From IMG/VR virus record IMGVR_UViG_2713896784_000029: DNA of 38,978 bases; one strand, written 5' to 3'. Every line of letters begins with the position of its first letter. Positions within the stretch are counted from its first letter, which is position 1. Origin of the DNA: a virus. Lineage: Duplodnaviria; Heunggongvirae; Uroviricota; Caudoviricetes. Of this stretch, positions 5,290 through 38,777 are shown one piece after another. A model generated the notes under the pieces. The model saw only the letters and a list, made by a program, of their open reading frames with translations. It was not told the origin of the DNA and searched no databases. The position numbers and the translations under genes were made by a program.

Positions 5290-5583
5290 ATGAGCAAAGT
5301 ACGCGTTATTTTTGAATTTGAGCATGTTTCGCATGACGAAAAACCGGCAGGCAATGACAGTGTTGAAGTGCATGAAAAGATTGGAGTGGATGTGAAAACA
5401 GAACGTGATACGGATAACAGGCCGACGTCACTCTGTGACGTTTATGCAAGCATTCTCCAGTATCACAGTCCTGTAATTATTCAGTTTCTCTCAGCGGAAT
5501 TTCAGGCATCTGTACAGGCTTTTGGGGCGGATGCCATCATTAAACGCCACCGTGTGCATAAAGCATCAGGCACACTGCAATAA
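5290..5583 (+). CDS. hypothetical early protein, tandem paralogue 2
   Basis: ATG 5290; N-terminus MSKVRVIFEFEHV parallels the upstream gene. Confidence 0.5.
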   Translation: MSKVRVIFEFEHVSHDEKPAGNDSVEVHEKIGVDVKTERDTDNRPTSLCDVYASILQYHSPVIIQFLSAEFQASVQAFGADAIIKRHRVHKASGTLQ

Positions 5584-5593
5584 GGAAAACAAA

Positions 5594-6124
5594 ATGGTTA
5601 AACGTGTTACAAAATTAAAGGCCGCAGCCGAGGCTGCACCGCAGACCCGCGAAGAAGTCAGCCGCGATATCCGCACCCTGGGCGATATTCAGCGAGAGGC
5701 GCTGCGCCTGGAAACGGCAATGAATGATGAAGTGGCAGAAATCACCGCCCGTTATACGCCGCAGATTGAAAACCTTAAAAAAGAAATCAAAGTGCTTTTT
5801 AAAGGGATTCATGACTGGTGTAAAACCAACCGCAATGAGCTGACGAACGGCGGCGAAACCAAAACTGCCAATCTGACCACCGGAACGGTGTCGTGGCGAC
5901 TGGGGAATCCATCATGCAGCGTCAGTCGTGATGTTGAAGGCGTGATTGAAATGCTGCGTCGTATGGGGCTTGAGCGCTTCATCCGCACGAAAGAGGAAGT
6001 GAATAAGCAAGCTGTCCTGGCAGAGCCGGATGCGGTGAAAGGGATTGCTGGTATTAAGGTGAATAAAGGCGCTGAAAGTTTTCATGTCGAGCCTTTTGAA
6101 CAGGACGTCGGACTGAATAAATAA
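5594..6124 (+). CDS. gam: Gam host-nuclease inhibitor (DNA-end binding, Ku-like)
   Basis: Translation from ATG 5594 (RBS AAGGAAAA); motifs IGDIQREALRLETAMNDEVAEIT, ELTNGGETKTANLTTGTVSWR and RFIRTKEEVNKQAVLAEP closely parallel Mu Gam. Confidence 0.85.
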   Translation: MVKRVTKLKAAAEAAPQTREEVSRDIRTLGDIQREALRLETAMNDEVAEITARYTPQIENLKKEIKVLFKGIHDWCKTNRNELTNGGETKTANLTTGTVSWRLGNPSCSVSRDVEGVIEMLRRMGLERFIRTKEEVNKQAVLAEPDAVKGIAGIKVNKGAESFHVEPFEQDVGLNK

Positions 6125-9148: not shown

Positions 9149-9368
9149 TGCCCATGCAGGCTCGGATATTGTCGAAATGCCAGTTTGTATTAATATATGA
9201 GCCATCCTGGTGTCCCTCTGCGCTTTGGGGTGCGGCACTTTTTTGAGCAATATTGATAATATGTGTTGCCTCCTCACGGGAAATAACCCCCTTATCGAAC
9301 AGGGTTACCATAAGATTTCCAGCCATTGTGAATGCGGCAACATCAAGGGCATTTTTTATATCTGACAT
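9129..9368 (-). CDS. hypothetical protein on opposite strand (AT-rich)
   Basis: 79-aa minus-strand ORF with RBS AAAAGGAAAAATCT-ATG; only convincing antisense-oriented gene in the early operon; AT-rich relative to flanks. Confidence 0.45.
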   Translation of the reverse strand: MSDIKNALDVAAFTMAGNLMVTLFDKGVISREEATHIINIAQKSAAPQSAEGHQDGSYINTNWHFDNIRACMGITAKKD

Positions 9369-31264: not shown

Positions 31265-31815
31265 CCCTGACCCCGCATCAGCGCGCCCTGTTGCAGTTGC
31301 TGCCTGACGGGCTGGCATGGGATAAGCGGCCGTCATCCGTTCTTGCGGCTTTGTGCCTGGGCCTCAGTCATTCCACGGAGCGTGTTTCCTGGACCGGTAA
31401 CCAGATGCTGGCAGAACGTTTTCCTGATTCATCCCGTCTGCTGCTGGAAGACTGGGAGCGTTATCTGGGGTTACCGGAATGTGATATGACCGGCGCAACC
31501 ATTCAGGAGCGTCAGCGTTATGCCGGGAATAAATACCGGATGAAACCCTCTCTTAACCGTGAATTTTATATCCGGTTTGCGGCAGAGTTTGGTTATGAAA
31601 TAGATATTCAGCCATCACCGGATTCACAGTGGGTCAGTATTGTCACGATTAACAGTGAAACCGGCTACCGGAATATGAATGTGCTGGATGATATTCTCAC
31701 GCCGCTGCGTATTTATGAAGGCGGTGCGCTGGAATGTATTCTGAACCGTTATAAGCCTGCATGGCAGACGTTTATTTACGTATATGCAAACAGTCACGAA
31801 GAGGAGAATATTTAA
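31255..31815 (+). CDS. tail protein (Mu gp48 position)
   Basis: 186 aa between baseplate J-like gene and tail fibre gene. Confidence 0.6.
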   Translation: MAVTLTPHQRALLQLLPDGLAWDKRPSSVLAALCLGLSHSTERVSWTGNQMLAERFPDSSRLLLEDWERYLGLPECDMTGATIQERQRYAGNKYRMKPSLNREFYIRFAAEFGYEIDIQPSPDSQWVSIVTINSETGYRNMNVLDDILTPLRIYEGGALECILNRYKPAWQTFIYVYANSHEEENI

Positions 31816-32726
31816 TGTTCCATGTTGATAATAATTCCGGCGTGGCGAATATGCCTGCGCTGGCACCGGCGCAGAGTAATACCACCACCTGGTTTACCGA
31901 AGGTGACGGACAAAAAGGTATCAGCTGGATTGGTCAGGACTGGCTGAATATTCTCCAGGCCGAACTGCTGAATATTCTGGCTGAAGCCAGTATTCAGCCG
32001 GATAAGGCGCAGTTAAACCAGCTTACGCTGTCCATTAAAGCCATTATCGCTGCGAATGCCTTTTCCCGGAAAAACAACCTGAAAGAAATTGCTGATGCCG
32101 GTGCGGAAGCCCAGCGTCTTGCCCGTGGTTATCTTGGTCTTGGGGCGCTTGCCACAAAAAACAGTCTTGGTCCCGGTGACGTTAATGCTCTGGCGAAGGA
32201 TCAGAACCTTGCCGACCTGGAGAATGCGGGAACCGCCCGTAATAATCTGGATGTTTACAGCAAAAGCGAAGGTGATAACCGTTACCTGCGCAGGGAGCAG
32301 AACGGCGCAGACATTCCGGATAAAGGCGCTTTTATCGATAACGTTGGTTTACGGGAAACGGTAAATAAGGCTGCTGATGCCCTGCCATCGGGTGGAACCG
32401 CCGTGGCAGCAAACAGACTCGCCACCCCAAGAAATATTAATGGTGTTCCTTTTGACGGAACGCTGGATATCAACATCACGTCAGGAATGACGCAGTCAAC
32501 CGCAGATGGCCGGTATGTACAGAATGTTCAGCTTGGAGCACAGAGCTATCATTCACCCGGAGGCAATGAAATGTCATGGAATTACAGCGCACCTTCCGGT
32601 TGTATGCTTTCCGGAATTAACGTGCAGGAAACCGGCTCCCGGTCTGCGGACAATATCGGTGGGGTCTATTATCGCCCGGTTCAGATTTATATTAATAATG
32701 CCTGGAGAACGGTAAGTTCAGTGTAA
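31815..32726 (+). CDS. tail fibre protein; constant N-terminal part plus variable C-terminal part inside invertible segment
   Basis: ATG 31815 after GAGGAGAA RBS; from about nt 32346 the 3' portion is repeated in inverted orientation at 33560-33720. Confidence 0.75.
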   Translation: MFHVDNNSGVANMPALAPAQSNTTTWFTEGDGQKGISWIGQDWLNILQAELLNILAEASIQPDKAQLNQLTLSIKAIIAANAFSRKNNLKEIADAGAEAQRLARGYLGLGALATKNSLGPGDVNALAKDQNLADLENAGTARNNLDVYSKSEGDNRYLRREQNGADIPDKGAFIDNVGLRETVNKAADALPSGGTAVAANRLATPRNINGVPFDGTLDINITSGMTQSTADGRYVQNVQLGAQSYHSPGGNEMSWNYSAPSGCMLSGINVQETGSRSADNIGGVYYRPVQIYINNAWRTVSSV

Positions 32727-32736
32727 ACCACAGAAA

Positions 32737-32755
32737 AGGGTGCTGAATGCACCCT
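32737..32755. terminator. hairpin between convergent fibre and fibre-assembly genes
   Basis: AGGGTGC-TGAAT-GCACCCT stem-loop in the 34-bp gap between the two convergent stop codons. Confidence 0.4.
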
Positions 32756-32760
32756 CTGAA

Positions 32761-33282
32761 TTATTCCGGTTTTTCCGGCCAGGGAATCGCCTGGTAATGC
32801 CCCTCACTGGCAATATCATTAAAGTGCATTTCTTTAAGCTGTCGGATATACGCCATCCAGCGCGTCAGCTGTAATTTATTTTCATCGCTAATCATGTCCA
32901 GTTTTAATTCCGTTTTCCAGTCATCCACAGTTTCGTTGGCTTCCTGGAGCAGCGATGAGCGGCGCTTTTCAGCAACCGTCTTCCAGTTTACCGGCACCTT
33001 TGATATCAGGCCATCAGAAAACTGCCAGTTACCGTCAATATTCACACCTTCCGGCAGTTCGTCCACTTCAACAACAGTAAAACCTGCCGGATATAAAGCA
33101 GAGACATCTTCAGCAACAGAGCAGATAATACCCGTTACAGGCGAAATACAGAGTTTGTATTTCTTTGTGAAAAGCGGGATAGATTCATAAAAATCCCTTC
33201 CGTCCTCACTCTGGAAATACTGAACATCCTCACCATAGGGTTTGTGTTCCGGGTAATATCGTTTTACGTTAATAAGCTCCAT
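32761..33282 (-). CDS. tail fibre assembly protein (U'-like chaperone)
   Basis: Minus-strand ORF; start at ATG 33282 (MELINVKRYY) with AAGGTGA RBS; C-terminal W/R-rich region typical of fibre assembly chaperones. Confidence 0.7.
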   Translation of the reverse strand: MELINVKRYYPEHKPYGEDVQYFQSEDGRDFYESIPLFTKKYKLCISPVTGIICSVAEDVSALYPAGFTVVEVDELPEGVNIDGNWQFSDGLISKVPVNWKTVAEKRRSSLLQEANETVDDWKTELKLDMISDENKLQLTRWMAYIRQLKEMHFNDIASEGHYQAIPWPEKPE

Positions 33283-33361
33283 TATTTCACCTTGTTTTTG
33301 TTGAAAAGACAAAATCATCATATATTTATTCAGATAATCTGTTTTTTGAACTACTGCACTT

Positions 33362-33720
33362 TTATGCGCTGGAAGCTGTTTTCCACGAACCATCTATCAG
33401 AAACTGAACAGGTCGATAATATGCGGTTACCGTTGCATTACCATCACCAGCGACATCAAGCCCTGTAAGTACGCATCCGTCAGGAACCTCAAAAATATTA
33501 TATTGCATTCCAATCGTTGACCTTGAACCTCTTCGAATGCTTTGAACATAACGTGAGTCAGCCACAGACTGCGTCATCCCCGATGTAATATTTATATCCT
33601 GCGTTCCGTCAAATGGGACACCATTAATATTTCTTGGAGTGGCGAGTTTATTCGCTGCAACAGCCGCTCCGTTCGATGGCAGGGCATTCGCGGCCCTGTT
33701 TACAGTATCCCGTAAACCGA
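33362..33720 (-). other. alternative tail-fibre C-terminal coding segment (Sv'-like) without own start
   Basis: Minus-strand frame open to the segment border; translation ...GLRDTVNRAANALPSNGAAVAANKLATPRNINGVPFDGTQDINITSGMTQSVADSRYVQ... parallels the plus-strand fibre. Would fuse to the fibre constant part only after inversion. Confidence 0.6.
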
Positions 33721-33787
33721 AGGTTTCAGGGATGCCGTATATCTGCTTTAAAAGGCCTTTCCACCTCTTTTTAAGGAAGGTAAATAC

Positions 33788-34348
33788 ATGCTGATTGGCT
33801 ATATACGCGTATCAACAAATGACCAGAACACAGGTTTACAAAGAAATGCGCTGGAATGTGCAGGATGTGAGCAGATTTTTGAAGATAAAATGAGTGGTAA
33901 AACGACACAGCGGCCGGGACTGAAGCGGGCACTGAAGAAACTAAAACCCGGTGACACACTGATGGTCTGGAAACTGGACAGGCTGGGGCGCAGTATGCGC
34001 CACCTTGTTGCGCTGACAGATGAATTACAGCAACAGGGGATAAATTTTCGTAGTCTTACTGACAACATTGATACGTCAACCCCCATGGGGCGCTTCTTTT
34101 TTCACATAATGGGTGCGCTGGCAGAAATGGAGCGTGAATTAATTGTCGAACGGACACGGGCTGGTCTTGCAGCTGCCCGTGAAAGGGGACGAACCGGCGG
34201 CAGACCCCGTCGTCTCACGCAGGAACAATACGAGCAGGTCGGGCGTTTACTGGCCGGGGGTGTCAGTCGAAGACAGGTGGCACTTATTTTTGATATCGGC
34301 CTTTCAACCCTTTATCGTTATTATCCTGCGAGCGTTTCGGAAAAATAA
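33788..34348 (+). CDS. gin: serine recombinase, Gin/Hin/Pin/Cin-family DNA invertase
   Basis: 186 aa; MLIGYIRVSTNDQNTGLQRNAL... with catalytic Ser in RVST and C-terminal HTH (QVALIFDIGLSTLYRY); very close to Mu Gin as recalled. Confidence 0.9.
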   Translation: MLIGYIRVSTNDQNTGLQRNALECAGCEQIFEDKMSGKTTQRPGLKRALKKLKPGDTLMVWKLDRLGRSMRHLVALTDELQQQGINFRSLTDNIDTSTPMGRFFFHIMGALAEMERELIVERTRAGLAAARERGRTGGRPRRLTQEQYEQVGRLLAGGVSRRQVALIFDIGLSTLYRYYPASVSEK

Positions 34349-34447
34349 GACGCTCTCTTTGTTGGGCCTTTACTGAATTAACGCAAAATGGCGTTTATCG
34401 GTCTGTGGATATGATAATTCAGTTTATTCAGGAACAGGCTGATTATT

Positions 34448-36487
34448 ATGACGTCCAAATGGGTTCAACTATCATCAATGCCCGGAAACTTTACTGTTAA
34501 AGTTTCCGGTGGTACAGCGGCATTTCTTGAGGCTCCCTTTCCTCCGGCCGAAACAAAAGGAGGAATGACATTTGCTGACTGTCTCATCAGTTTTAATACA
34601 CGGGATTGCCTGTGGGTAAGGCCAGTATCCGGTGATCCGAGTGTGGAAATTACCGGAGCGGGTATTGGTGCGGTCATTCCGTTAAGTGCTGATGTTGCCG
34701 GTACTGCTGAACCGTCAGACTGGGATAATGCTGAAACACATACCCGTCCGTCAGGAAATGAAACTGCTTCCAGCTCCCCTTCCTGGTATTACGTGGTGGT
34801 TCTTGCTGGTCAGTCAAACGGTATGGCTTACGGTGAAGGTCTGCCACTGCCGGAGACATATGACCGCCCCGAACCGCGTATTATGCAGTTAGCCCGTCGC
34901 AGTACAGTCACGCCGGGAGGTAAAGCCTGTCAGTATAACGACATCATTCTGGCCGACCACTGTCTGCATGATGTGCAGGATATGAGTGGAAAAAATCACC
35001 CGAAAGCGGATGTGGCTAAAGGGCAATATGGCACCGTGGGTCAGGGGCTTCACATTGCCAAAAAACTGCTGCCGTTTATTCCGGCAGATGCGGGGATTCT
35101 GCTGGTTCCCTGCTGCCGTGGTGGTTCTGCATTCACGGCGGGTGCTGACGGCACGTACAGTGACAGCACGGGTGCTTCAGAGGACTCAGCCCGCTGGGGT
35201 GTGGATAAGCCGCTGTATAAGGACTTAATCAGCCGGACAAAAGCGGCACTGGCGAAGAACCCGAAAAACCGCCTGCTTGCTGTGGTGTGGATGCAGGGCG
35301 AGTTTGATATTGATGCGAAGCCGACGGAGCATTCCGCGCTGTTTCTGGCGATGGTGGAAAAATTCCGCGCAGACCTGGCTGAACAGGCGGAACAGTGTAC
35401 CGGTGGCAGTGCTGCTGGCGTTCCGTGGATTTGTGGCGATACCACGTATTTCTGGAAACAGAAAAATGAACCGGCATACCAGGCAATCTATGGCGGCTAC
35501 AAAAACAAAACAGATAAAAACATTCATTTCGTTCCATTAATGACAGATGAAAATGACGCGAATGTACCCACCAACAATCCGGCAGAAGACCCGGATATTG
35601 AATCCATTGGTTATTACGGCTCAACGTGGCGTAACAGTGCCGCCACCTGGACATCTGCGGACCGGGCCAGCCATTTCAGTTCATGGGCACGTCGTGGGAT
35701 TATTTCCGACCGTCTGGCCACGGCAGTTCTGACTCATGCGGGGCGAACCACAGTAAAAGCCGATGTTCCATCTTCTGAAACTGAAGCACCAGTGCCGTCA
35801 CCTTCAGAAACTGAAGCAGTAACCACAACACTGCTGTCTTATCGTGTCAGTGAGTCAGAAGGAAATCTGAAAGCCCAGGGCTGGGAGCCGGCTGGCGGTA
35901 AAGCTGAAATTATCAGTGATGCAGGAGGCACAGGTGGTAAGGCAATGAAACTGACCAAGGAAACAGGTAAATCATCCTGGTATCTGGATCATGATGCCGG
36001 TACTGGTGCTGAACTGCTGAAAAATGGTGGTTTAATCAGTTGTCGTTTTAAAGTACCTGGCGACCTGGTGGCAAACCAGTATGTCATGGGGCTTTACTGG
36101 CCGGTTTCCTCTCTGCCGCAGGGTGTCACCCTGACAGGGGATGCAGGGAATAATCTGCTGGCATCGTTCTACATCCAGACAGACGCAAAAGACCTGAATG
36201 TGATGTACCACAATGCAAAAGTGGCAACAAATAACCAGAAACTGGGAACCTTTGGTGCATTTGATAATGAATGGCATACGCTGGCCTTCCGTTTTGCAGG
36301 AAATAACAGCCTTCAGGTTATTCCGGTTATTGATGGTCAGGATGGTGCCGCGTTTACCCTGACGCAGTCACCAGTAGGAACTTTCCCGGTGGACAAACTC
36401 CGCGTAACGGATATCACAAAAAATGCAACTTACCCGGTGCTGATTGACAGCATTGTGGTGGAAGTGAAAAAAGCGGTAACAGAATAA
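34448..36487 (+). CDS. cargo SASA/SGNH-type carbohydrate O-acetylesterase (prophage NanS-p-like) with C-terminal beta-rich domain
   Basis: 679 aa; VVVLAGQSNGMAYGEG (Ser motif) and VVWMQGEFD (WxQGE.D) match the sialate O-acetylesterase family signature; SETEA-SETEA linker then ~230-aa beta-rich domain; located between gin and com where Mu has no gene. Confidence 0.6.
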   Translation: MTSKWVQLSSMPGNFTVKVSGGTAAFLEAPFPPAETKGGMTFADCLISFNTRDCLWVRPVSGDPSVEITGAGIGAVIPLSADVAGTAEPSDWDNAETHTRPSGNETASSSPSWYYVVVLAGQSNGMAYGEGLPLPETYDRPEPRIMQLARRSTVTPGGKACQYNDIILADHCLHDVQDMSGKNHPKADVAKGQYGTVGQGLHIAKKLLPFIPADAGILLVPCCRGGSAFTAGADGTYSDSTGASEDSARWGVDKPLYKDLISRTKAALAKNPKNRLLAVVWMQGEFDIDAKPTEHSALFLAMVEKFRADLAEQAEQCTGGSAAGVPWICGDTTYFWKQKNEPAYQAIYGGYKNKTDKNIHFVPLMTDENDANVPTNNPAEDPDIESIGYYGSTWRNSAATWTSADRASHFSSWARRGIISDRLATAVLTHAGRTTVKADVPSSETEAPVPSPSETEAVTTTLLSYRVSESEGNLKAQGWEPAGGKAEIISDAGGTGGKAMKLTKETGKSSWYLDHDAGTGAELLKNGGLISCRFKVPGDLVANQYVMGLYWPVSSLPQGVTLTGDAGNNLLASFYIQTDAKDLNVMYHNAKVATNNQKLGTFGAFDNEWHTLAFRFAGNNSLQVIPVIDGQDGAAFTLTQSPVGTFPVDKLRVTDITKNATYPVLIDSIVVEVKKAVTE

Positions 36488-38732: not shown

Positions 38733-38777
38733 TACTTGCTGCAAGGTTATCCCGCCGTTGAAGCTGCATTAGGTTTT

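Follow-up and report, generated by a model that had tools for sequence, protein, structure and literature searches.

Organization of the tail-fibre cassette

The stretch of DNA analysed here, called the window throughout, comprises 38,978 nucleotides of the IMG/VR virus record IMGVR_UViG_2713896784_000029 (Caudoviricetes). This 39-kb window represents a complete Mu-like prophage, which begins on the left with the genes for the repressor, ner and transposase A and B and closes with com and mom. Its right end lies close to position 38734. Our subject is its tail-fibre region. Positions 31760-34350 are identical (100% over 2,591 nt) to many genomes of Shiga-toxigenic Escherichia coli (STEC), and gene set, gene order and cassette orientation match those of prophage Sp18 in the O157:H7 strain Sakai. 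The tail-fibre region corresponds to the G segment and belongs to an Sp18-type Mu-like prophage of pathogenic and Shiga-toxigenic E. coli. The initial annotation had described it as a Gin-type invertible cassette with two fibre tips but only one gene for a tail-fibre assembly chaperone (tfa), and each of these elements was indeed found in place (Table 1). We argue that this one chaperone probably serves both tips and is made from a transcript of its own.

The invertible segment spans 1.4 kb (32332-33733), is bounded by two gix-like crossover sites and adjoins the gene for a Gin-type invertase. Within it lie the 3' end of the fibre gene that is expressed, the convergent tfa and a silent alternative fibre tip.

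Table 1. Features of the invertible tail-fibre cassette and its surroundings in the window. Tip classes (T0, T4, etc.) follow the numbering of this study.
Feature	Position	Strand	Description
Tail-fibre gene S	31815-32726	+	303 aa; constant part and plus-strand tip; same open reading frame called by PGAP in identical genomes
Left crossover site (gixL-like)	32332-32357		26 bp, TTATCGATAACG TT GGTTTACGGGAA
Left repeat arm	32337-32521		coding, common to both fibre versions (…NVGLRETVN…INGVPFDGT.DINITSGMTQS…)
Plus-strand variable tip, class T4	32522-32726	+	…SADNIGGVYYRPVQIYINNAWRTVSSV
GC-rich hairpin	32738-32757		inside the 34-nt convergent gap 32727-32760
tfa, tail-fibre assembly gene	32761-33282	-	173 aa; own Shine-Dalgarno sequence GGTGA
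AT-rich spacer between silent-tip stop and tfa start	33283-33361	-	79 nt
Silent alternative fibre 3' exon, class T0	33362-33718	-	…TAYYRPVQFLIDGSWKTASSA; promoterless; stop at 33362; takes in the right repeat arm 33543-33727
Right crossover site	33707-33733		27 bp, ATCCCGTAAACC GAA GGTTTCAGGGAT; 3-nt core
Gin-family serine DNA invertase	33788-34348	+	186 aa; N-terminal motif YIRVSTNDQ

All three proteins have clear relatives in phage Mu. The fibre protein (phrog_1833, E = 5.5e-166; 5yvq_A, E = 4e-49) is a 'mini' Mu S that matches Mu S 1-191 with its residues 1-198 and the Mu S tip (435-503) with its residues 229-302, and it lacks about 240 aa of the Mu shaft. Tfa carries the Pfam domain Caudo_TAP (PF02413, E = 1.9e-18, 67 bits against a cut-off of 22), matches phrog_136 (E = 1e-57) and aligns over residues 17-147 with TfaMu, 5yvq_B (E = 2.3e-15). 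The invertase, like the small serine recombinases (about 190 aa) of Gin, Hin, Cin and Pin systems, combines a resolvase catalytic domain with a C-terminal HTH (PF00239, E = 1.4e-51; PF02796, E = 1.7e-14), and over 181 aa it shares 75% identity with Mu Gin.

Eight diverse Tfa queries, searched over the whole window, matched only positions 32764-33288, with the next best hit at E = 0.015. A second chaperone gene, in particular one co-oriented with the expressed fibre gene, is thus absent from the window, as had been proposed. Since tfa is convergent to the expressed fibre gene in the window orientation, it does not lie immediately downstream of it, the place usual for a tfa that is co-transcribed with its client fibre; from the silent tip, too, it is set apart by the 79-nt spacer.

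The two repeat arms share 77% identity over 185 nt (32337-32521 versus 33543-33727), which bears out the inverted-repeat homology postulated earlier. Most of this repeat is shared coding sequence, and the actual recombination sites are its outer 26-27 bp. The hairpin predicted in the 34-bp gap between fibre stop and convergent gene is also present. It reaches -15.4 kcal/mol on the plus strand (z = -2.8) and -17.9 kcal/mol on the minus strand (z = -3.6), where UUUUCUGUGGUUU follows, and it resembles an intrinsic terminator that would act above all on the minus-strand gene and less strongly on the plus strand. Finally, both tips end in the common C-terminal motif YYRPVQ.(Y/L)I...W(R/K)T.SS; the motif had been recognised before, but three residues, not two, separate its I from its W.

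Inversion of the segment

When the segment is inverted in silico at the 11-bp core GGTTTACGGGA shared by both sites, an uninterrupted in-frame fibre of 293 aa results, which is then followed by tfa. The same 293-aa reading frame is annotated in naturally inverted genomes. We found the entire inverted junction in 15 complete E. coli genomes, with an identity of at least 97.9% in 14 and of 94.8-100% across all 15, and the window orientation in 182, and the relatives in IMG/VR are split into approximately 15 with the window orientation and 7 with the inverted one. The natural inverted junctions place the exchange within or directly beside the 11-bp core. This type of cassette inverts in nature.

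Match between the chaperone and the two tips

Both tips are homologous to the tip of Mu S, which together with its Tfa forms the two chains of PDB entry 5YVQ. PMC9608196 names the distal region of Mu S as the place where Tfa binds and, citing North et al. 2019, the N-domain of Tfa as the fibre-binding part; the C-terminal domain of the family is helical.

Outside its own group, the closest relative of the lone Tfa is tail2 of Rac-SA53, with 53% identity overall and 69% in the N-domain. Its gene starts 2 nt past the end of a fibre gene with a tip that shares 68% identity with the plus-strand tip of the window. A tip similar to the silent T0 tip (57% identity) occurs in Hafnia phage yong1; the Tfa after it, however, shares no more than 35% identity with that of the window. 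In the annotated records of Rac-SA53, SfMu and a P2-like phage, 1-3 nt separate homologous tips from the tfa behind them, and by hit coordinates a tfa lies about 10 nt past the tip match in phages of Cronobacter and Pectobacterium. By these comparisons, the lone Tfa fits the plus-strand tip, which looks as if it had no chaperone, at least as well as it fits the tip located upstream of it.

These relationships bear directly on the possibility that the plus-strand (T4-class) tip folds and trimerises without Tfa, the resident tfa serving the alternative tip only. Two observations would agree with such a tip. In Sp18-type cassettes the tip convergent to tfa, and thus in the tfa-less position, always belongs to one class (T4, T5, T6: …SADNIGGVYYRPVQ…), and the tip upstream of tfa varies (T0, T1, T2). 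Moreover, a probably plus-locked allele described below has spread to many insertion sites, so the plus-strand fibre works somehow. However, T4-class tips stand directly before a tfa in Rac-SA53, SfMu and the P2-like phage, and hit coordinates place them likewise in the phages of Cronobacter and Pectobacterium; the closest relative of the lone Tfa is the partner of a T4-like tip. The cassette of a Citrobacter relative even shows the reverse arrangement, with a T4-like tip adjoining tfa and a different tip without one. In other single-tfa cassettes the tips are homologous to each other, and relatives without an invertase, which are limited to expressing the plus tip class, keep tfa intact. We regard a tip that folds unaided as unlikely. 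It is the least supported of the three options that the initial annotation had listed, namely unaided folding, use of the chaperone in trans and a reduced derivative.

A chaperone could also be supplied from elsewhere. Enterohaemorrhagic E. coli (EHEC) carry many lambdoid prophages with tfa, hosts of the Sp18-type prophage are poly-lysogens, and lambda Tfa is able to replace gp38 of phage T4; the plus-state fibre might then be folded by Tfa from other prophages in the cell. Under such an arrangement, however, the host range would depend on the resident set of prophages. It also leaves unexplained why the lineage without invertase has an intact convergent tfa and why the N-domain of the resident Tfa matches the partners of plus-type tips. 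We consider this very improbable and prefer the use of the resident Tfa by both tips.

Transcription of tfa in the window orientation

If the resident Tfa is to act on the plus-strand tip, its gene has to be expressed while it is convergent to the fibre gene. Strain Sakai carries the cassette in the window orientation and was followed in an array time course in glucose minimal medium (Bergholz et al. 2007, PMC2241611). At the entry to stationary phase, tfa (ECs4990) and the silent tip fragment (ECs4991) rose by log2 2.13 and 2.12, respectively (Table 2 of PMC2241611). In Additional File 2 of PMC2241611, the log2 index climbs between 4.6 h and 5.5 h from about -0.8 to +1.3 for tfa and from about -1.1 to +1.1 for the tip fragment. 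Over the whole course the fibre gene (ECs4989) varied by less than 1 log2 unit, and ECs4993 remained flat. Because tfa and the silent tip fragment are co-induced while the fibre gene is not, these data indicate a transcript in Sakai that covers both and is independent of the fibre operon. The increase, approximately 4.4-fold, took place in an uninduced lysogen, and both genes fall into the same expression cluster as RpoS-dependent genes (PMC2241611, Additional File 2).

The spacing of the genes is consistent with a separate transcript. In single-tfa cassettes 51-120 nt lie between the upstream tip and tfa, with the exception of L190, where the spacer is absent, versus 1-8 nt or an overlap in coupled fibre-tfa pairs.

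Some further sequence elements were noted in this part of the cassette. A sequence resembling the pattern of Mu late promoters, ACAACCCC-N19-TATTAT, occurs in the spacer of cassettes that we call type B (L064, approximately 5560-5600) and in relatives without invertase (equivalent position in L046), but is missing from the spacer of the window. The repeat arm beside the tfa-proximal tip (33600-33640, minus strand) uses AT-rich synonymous codons for DINIT (GATATAAATATTACA), and the other arm (32440-32480, plus strand) reads GATATCAACATCACG; this holds for most alleles checked. As an internal promoter the AT-rich codons were discarded, as their -35/-10 spacing does not fit.

Single-chaperone cassettes among relatives

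The layout of the window is not a peculiarity of one prophage. All complete Sp18-type relatives show a tip, a convergent tfa, a second tip upstream of tfa and an invertase, with exactly one tfa each. The layout is kept by alleles whose Tfa is only 61-64% and whose tips are only 29-48% identical to those of the window, and a relative from Citrobacter braakii has the same layout built from different parts. A search of a genome-contig collection (one genome per species) with S gave only two relevant loci.

We further inspected 33 more distant Gin-type invertase loci in IMG/VR. Approximately 17 have two convergent tfa genes and approximately 14 a single tfa match. Eight of the single-tfa loci were confirmed to have inverted repeats at a distance of 1.2-1.65 kb, and the five whose reading frames were read contain two to three mutually homologous tips and one tfa. 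The loci L153, L156, L190, L196 and L198 share the architecture of the window (1.25-1.65 kb between the inverted repeats, one tfa, two to three mutually homologous tips). Their invertases are 75-77% identical to that of the window, but their tip classes are unrelated (…YWFAVGY, …FNYIVRA). A megablast search with one of the single-tfa IMG/VR cassettes gave no match among named phages, and the number of chaperones goes undiscussed in a survey of programmed inversions and in a paper on phase variation in E. coli.

The asymmetry does distinguish the window from Mu, as claimed: there is one tfa in segment and window, versus two in Mu. The impression that it is unusual does not extend to Gin-type cassettes at large, where it is common. 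Two tfa genes each are found in Mu, SfMu, Fels-2 and L081. L080 and L081, which are close relatives but stand somewhat further off than the Sp18-type ones, are symmetric, as are SfMu, Mu and Fels-2; this cassette type has therefore probably lost one tfa in the course of its evolution. The suggested origin as a reduced derivative is therefore correct in the evolutionary sense, but the reduced form is stably maintained and not decaying. The one-tfa layout is a recurrent design that is stably kept, neither decay nor a quirk of the window prophage.

Additional variation was seen within these cassettes. Three crossover sites are present in the C. braakii cassette (L005; 4819-4852, 6780-6856 and 7190-7223) and in L153, L155 and L185, and at least L153 combines three tips with a single tfa; these three-site cassettes are small multi-inversion shufflons. 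In type B cassettes (L064, 5526-5646; also L045, L071 and L074) a remnant of 36 nt follows the stop of the tfa-proximal tip and codes for the C-terminus of a different tip (…INGSWRTAGSA*). It is a footprint of cassette replacement by recombination.

In seven relatives (L046-L050, L055 and L062) one shared deletion took gin and most of the alternative tip. This lineage is frozen with S convergent to tfa, followed by an esterase gene (e.g., L046, 2298-3600), and tfa is intact in all seven. Its members express different tips, T4 or T5, which indicates that tips were exchanged by recombination after the deletion. At the non-coding junction that is unique to the lineage, most pairs differ by 4-4.6%.

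Crossover cores and a probable lock of the switch

In the Gin, Hin, Cin and Pin systems, two inverted 26-bp sites each consist of 12-bp half-sites around an identical 2-bp core, and a Fis-dependent recombinational enhancer lies in the 5' part of the invertase gene. From the right crossover site up to and including the 5' part of gin, the window can be aligned with the corresponding Mu sequence at a mean column identity of 83%. Both crossover sites closely match Mu gixL (TTATCCAAAACC TC GGTTTACAGGAA) and gixR; the half-site GGTTTACGGGAA of the window takes the place of GGTTTACAGGAA in Mu.

The cores themselves deserve attention. Half-sites and TT core fit in the left site. The right site has both half-sites but a core of three nucleotides, and compared to the relatives (GA or AA) and to Mu gixR (GA), its GAA contains an insertion of 1 nt that also shifts the half-site spacing. 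Read in the same sense, the cores of the window are AA on the left (TT at 32344-32345) and GAA on the right (33719-33721), mismatched in sequence and spacing. The relatives have matched 2-bp cores, most of them GA/GA as in Mu, and AA/AA in Sakai, L043 and L120. The two cores thus change together across strains, as expected if they must match. A 'frameshifted hypothetical protein' called by PGAP at about 33588-33774 spans the right core and may reflect the same 1-nt insertion.

The GAA allele was found in 36 complete E. coli genomes, all in the window orientation and none inverted. Approximately 146 genomes in the window orientation lack the insertion, compared to the 15 inverted ones (9%); on this basis, zero inverted among 36 has P of about 0.03 if relatedness between genomes is ignored. 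Together with the known behaviour of serine invertases, this suggests that the 1-bp insertion probably locks the switch of the window copy in the plus-tip state or strongly impairs it. The allele occupies no fewer than six distinct chromosomal sites in strains of O26, O103, O145, O157 and further backgrounds, in each case with the plus orientation, and judging from this distribution the plus-tip state appears to be infectious.

The same distribution speaks to the idea that the cassette is a degenerate remnant, in which the co-oriented tfa was deleted, plus particles are fibre-less or non-infectious, and the switch is an on/off device or broken. The symmetry of L080, L081, SfMu and Mu, which makes a loss of tfa probable, and the mutated right crossover site of the window copy would be in line with it. 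Asadulghani et al. (2009, PMC2669165) described an invertible host-specificity region of Sp18 with genes distinct from Mu, scored its host specificity as 'atypical' and left the infectivity of Sp18 undetermined; the single chaperone is not discussed there. On the other hand, the same study reports that Sakai releases Mu-like particles with packaged Sp18 DNA (PMC2669165), and tfa is transcribed in the plus orientation (PMC2241611). At least three diverged cassette alleles, and unrelated Gin-type loci as well, keep the one-tfa layout, and the identical plus-oriented prophage occupies at least six independent insertion sites in different serotypes. We give a degenerate cassette very little weight.

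A proposed shared chaperone for two tips

The preferred reading, a single chaperone shared by both tips and made from its own transcript, can be put as follows. A Gin-family invertase recombines two gix-like sites inside the tail-fibre gene, and the inversion swaps a receptor-binding tip of approximately 70 residues, of class T4 or T0, on a constant fibre body. One Tfa would serve both tips. In the inverted state tfa would be co-transcribed with the fibre gene; in the state of the window it would be expressed from its own transcript, with a start that lies upstream of the silent tip fragment. In that case the plus-strand fibre expressed there would not truly lack a chaperone. We infer three parts of this scheme: that Tfa folds both tips, where the promoter of tfa lies and that Tfa is made in lytic growth. 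Among the options raised initially, the use of the chaperone in trans is the one best supported, by the homology of Tfa to the partners of plus-type tips, by the conserved layout and by the independent transcription of tfa in Sakai.

Several points weigh against this reading. The match between Tfa and the tips was assessed by homology. The array data come from a lysogen entering stationary phase and not from lytic growth, and cross-hybridisation of the 70-mer probes with tfa genes of other prophages is possible. A sigma-70 scan of positions 32200-33900 revealed no promoter upstream of tfa on the minus strand. Likewise, a scan of the window with a Mu late-promoter (C-site-like) motif, built from the four annotated late promoters of AF083977 (CATAACCCC, 20 nt, -10 element), gave nothing convincing in the 79-nt spacer. 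The tfa dN/dS in the lineage without invertase is low (0.11-0.23), which is suggestive, but it is confounded by recombination, as L050 and L062 have identical flanks and 22 differences in tfa, and these values were set aside as too unreliable to prove selection after the deletion.

Comparison with known systems

The closest known system is the G segment with Gin of Mu, also present in SfMu and D108. The gene order gp47, gp48, S, invertible segment, gin, com, mom is the same, Mom is 80% identical, and the N-terminus of S, both tips and Tfa are homologous to S and U of Mu. The relatives of the window use the GA core of Mu. The differences lie in size and layout: Mu carries Sv-U and U'-Sv' symmetrically in 3 kb, whereas the 1.4-kb segment of the window holds one tfa, and fibre and tfa are 2 nt apart in Mu but separated by the 79-nt spacer in the window. 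In addition, only the window has a gene of 2 kb, coding for an esterase, between gin and com. Sp18 of Sakai belongs to the same type of prophage as the window and has this cassette in identical orientation, and it differs by its matched AA/AA cores, as opposed to AA/GAA in the window, and by its insertion site.

The tail1/tail2 genes of Rac-SA53, the P2-type H/G genes and the pair of Hafnia phage yong1 share their tip superfamily (YYRPVQ…W.T.S) and their Tfa family with the window, the Rac-SA53 pair being the nearest relative of both the plus-strand tip and Tfa. In these pairs, fibre gene and tfa are co-oriented, 2-8 nt apart and without an invertase. Fels-2, unlike the window, is symmetric with one tfa per tip. 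Among other systems, P1 C, e14 P, p15B Min and carotovoricin Er/Ein (790-bp segment) also have a serine invertase adjoining a segment that exchanges fibre 3' ends.

Setting of the prophage

The insertion site of the prophage differs in each genome examined (window end at about 38734; loci L001 and L125-L129). The sites include sorM, yoaF, an amidohydrolase gene adjoining ureE, tnpA of IS609 and portal genes of other prophages. This scatter is consistent with recent transposition of the Mu type.

The gene between gin and com/mom (34448-36487, plus strand), for which Mu has no counterpart, codes for a protein of 679 aa with a SASA sialate-acetylesterase and a DUF6645 domain, which we take to be similar to the NanS-p type. 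A promoter-like sequence, TGTGGATATGATAAT, is located upstream of it. The esterase alleles are between 60% and 100% identical among otherwise near-identical prophages, and the gene looks like an exchangeable cargo gene. In the left part of the prophage (9285-9330, plus strand), AATAACCCCC-N19-TAAGAT comes close to the Mu promoter Pmom (AATAACCAC-N20-TAAGAT) and may be a middle or a late promoter of the prophage.

Implications

The cassette is a compact and widespread variant of the Mu G/Gin system, located in a prophage that was known before, and the general view of Gin-type switches stays as it was. The points of greatest use are the homology of Tfa to partners of the plus-type tip, the separate transcript in Sakai, the wide occurrence of single-chaperone cassettes and the natural core mutation.

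It is possible, and we suggest it tentatively, that single-chaperone fibre shufflons constitute a distinct design, which is undescribed in the literature searched: one Tfa with its own promoter, independent of orientation and induced in stationary phase in the lysogen, would act as a general folding factor for two to three tips. If this is true, a switch of host range needs a swap of only about 70 codons, and the specificity of Tfa is set by the conserved C-terminal tip motif and not by each tip. The point changes in the cores (GA, AA, GAA) would then be natural tuners or locks of the switch, and the core-site variants provide a ready natural series on the core matching and spacing rules of serine invertases.

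To retarget a phage or tailocin, it is the tips and their chaperones that are exchanged, and the usual assumption is that each tip needs its own adjacent Tfa. A switch with a shared Tfa would show that one chaperone is able to fold diverged tips, which would make such engineering simpler. For EHEC, the arrangement bears on the receptor form used by a mobile Sp18-type prophage whose insertions fall at random, with other prophages and genes beside the ure operon among the targets. More generally, a shared chaperone would explain how very compact host-range switches can evolve.

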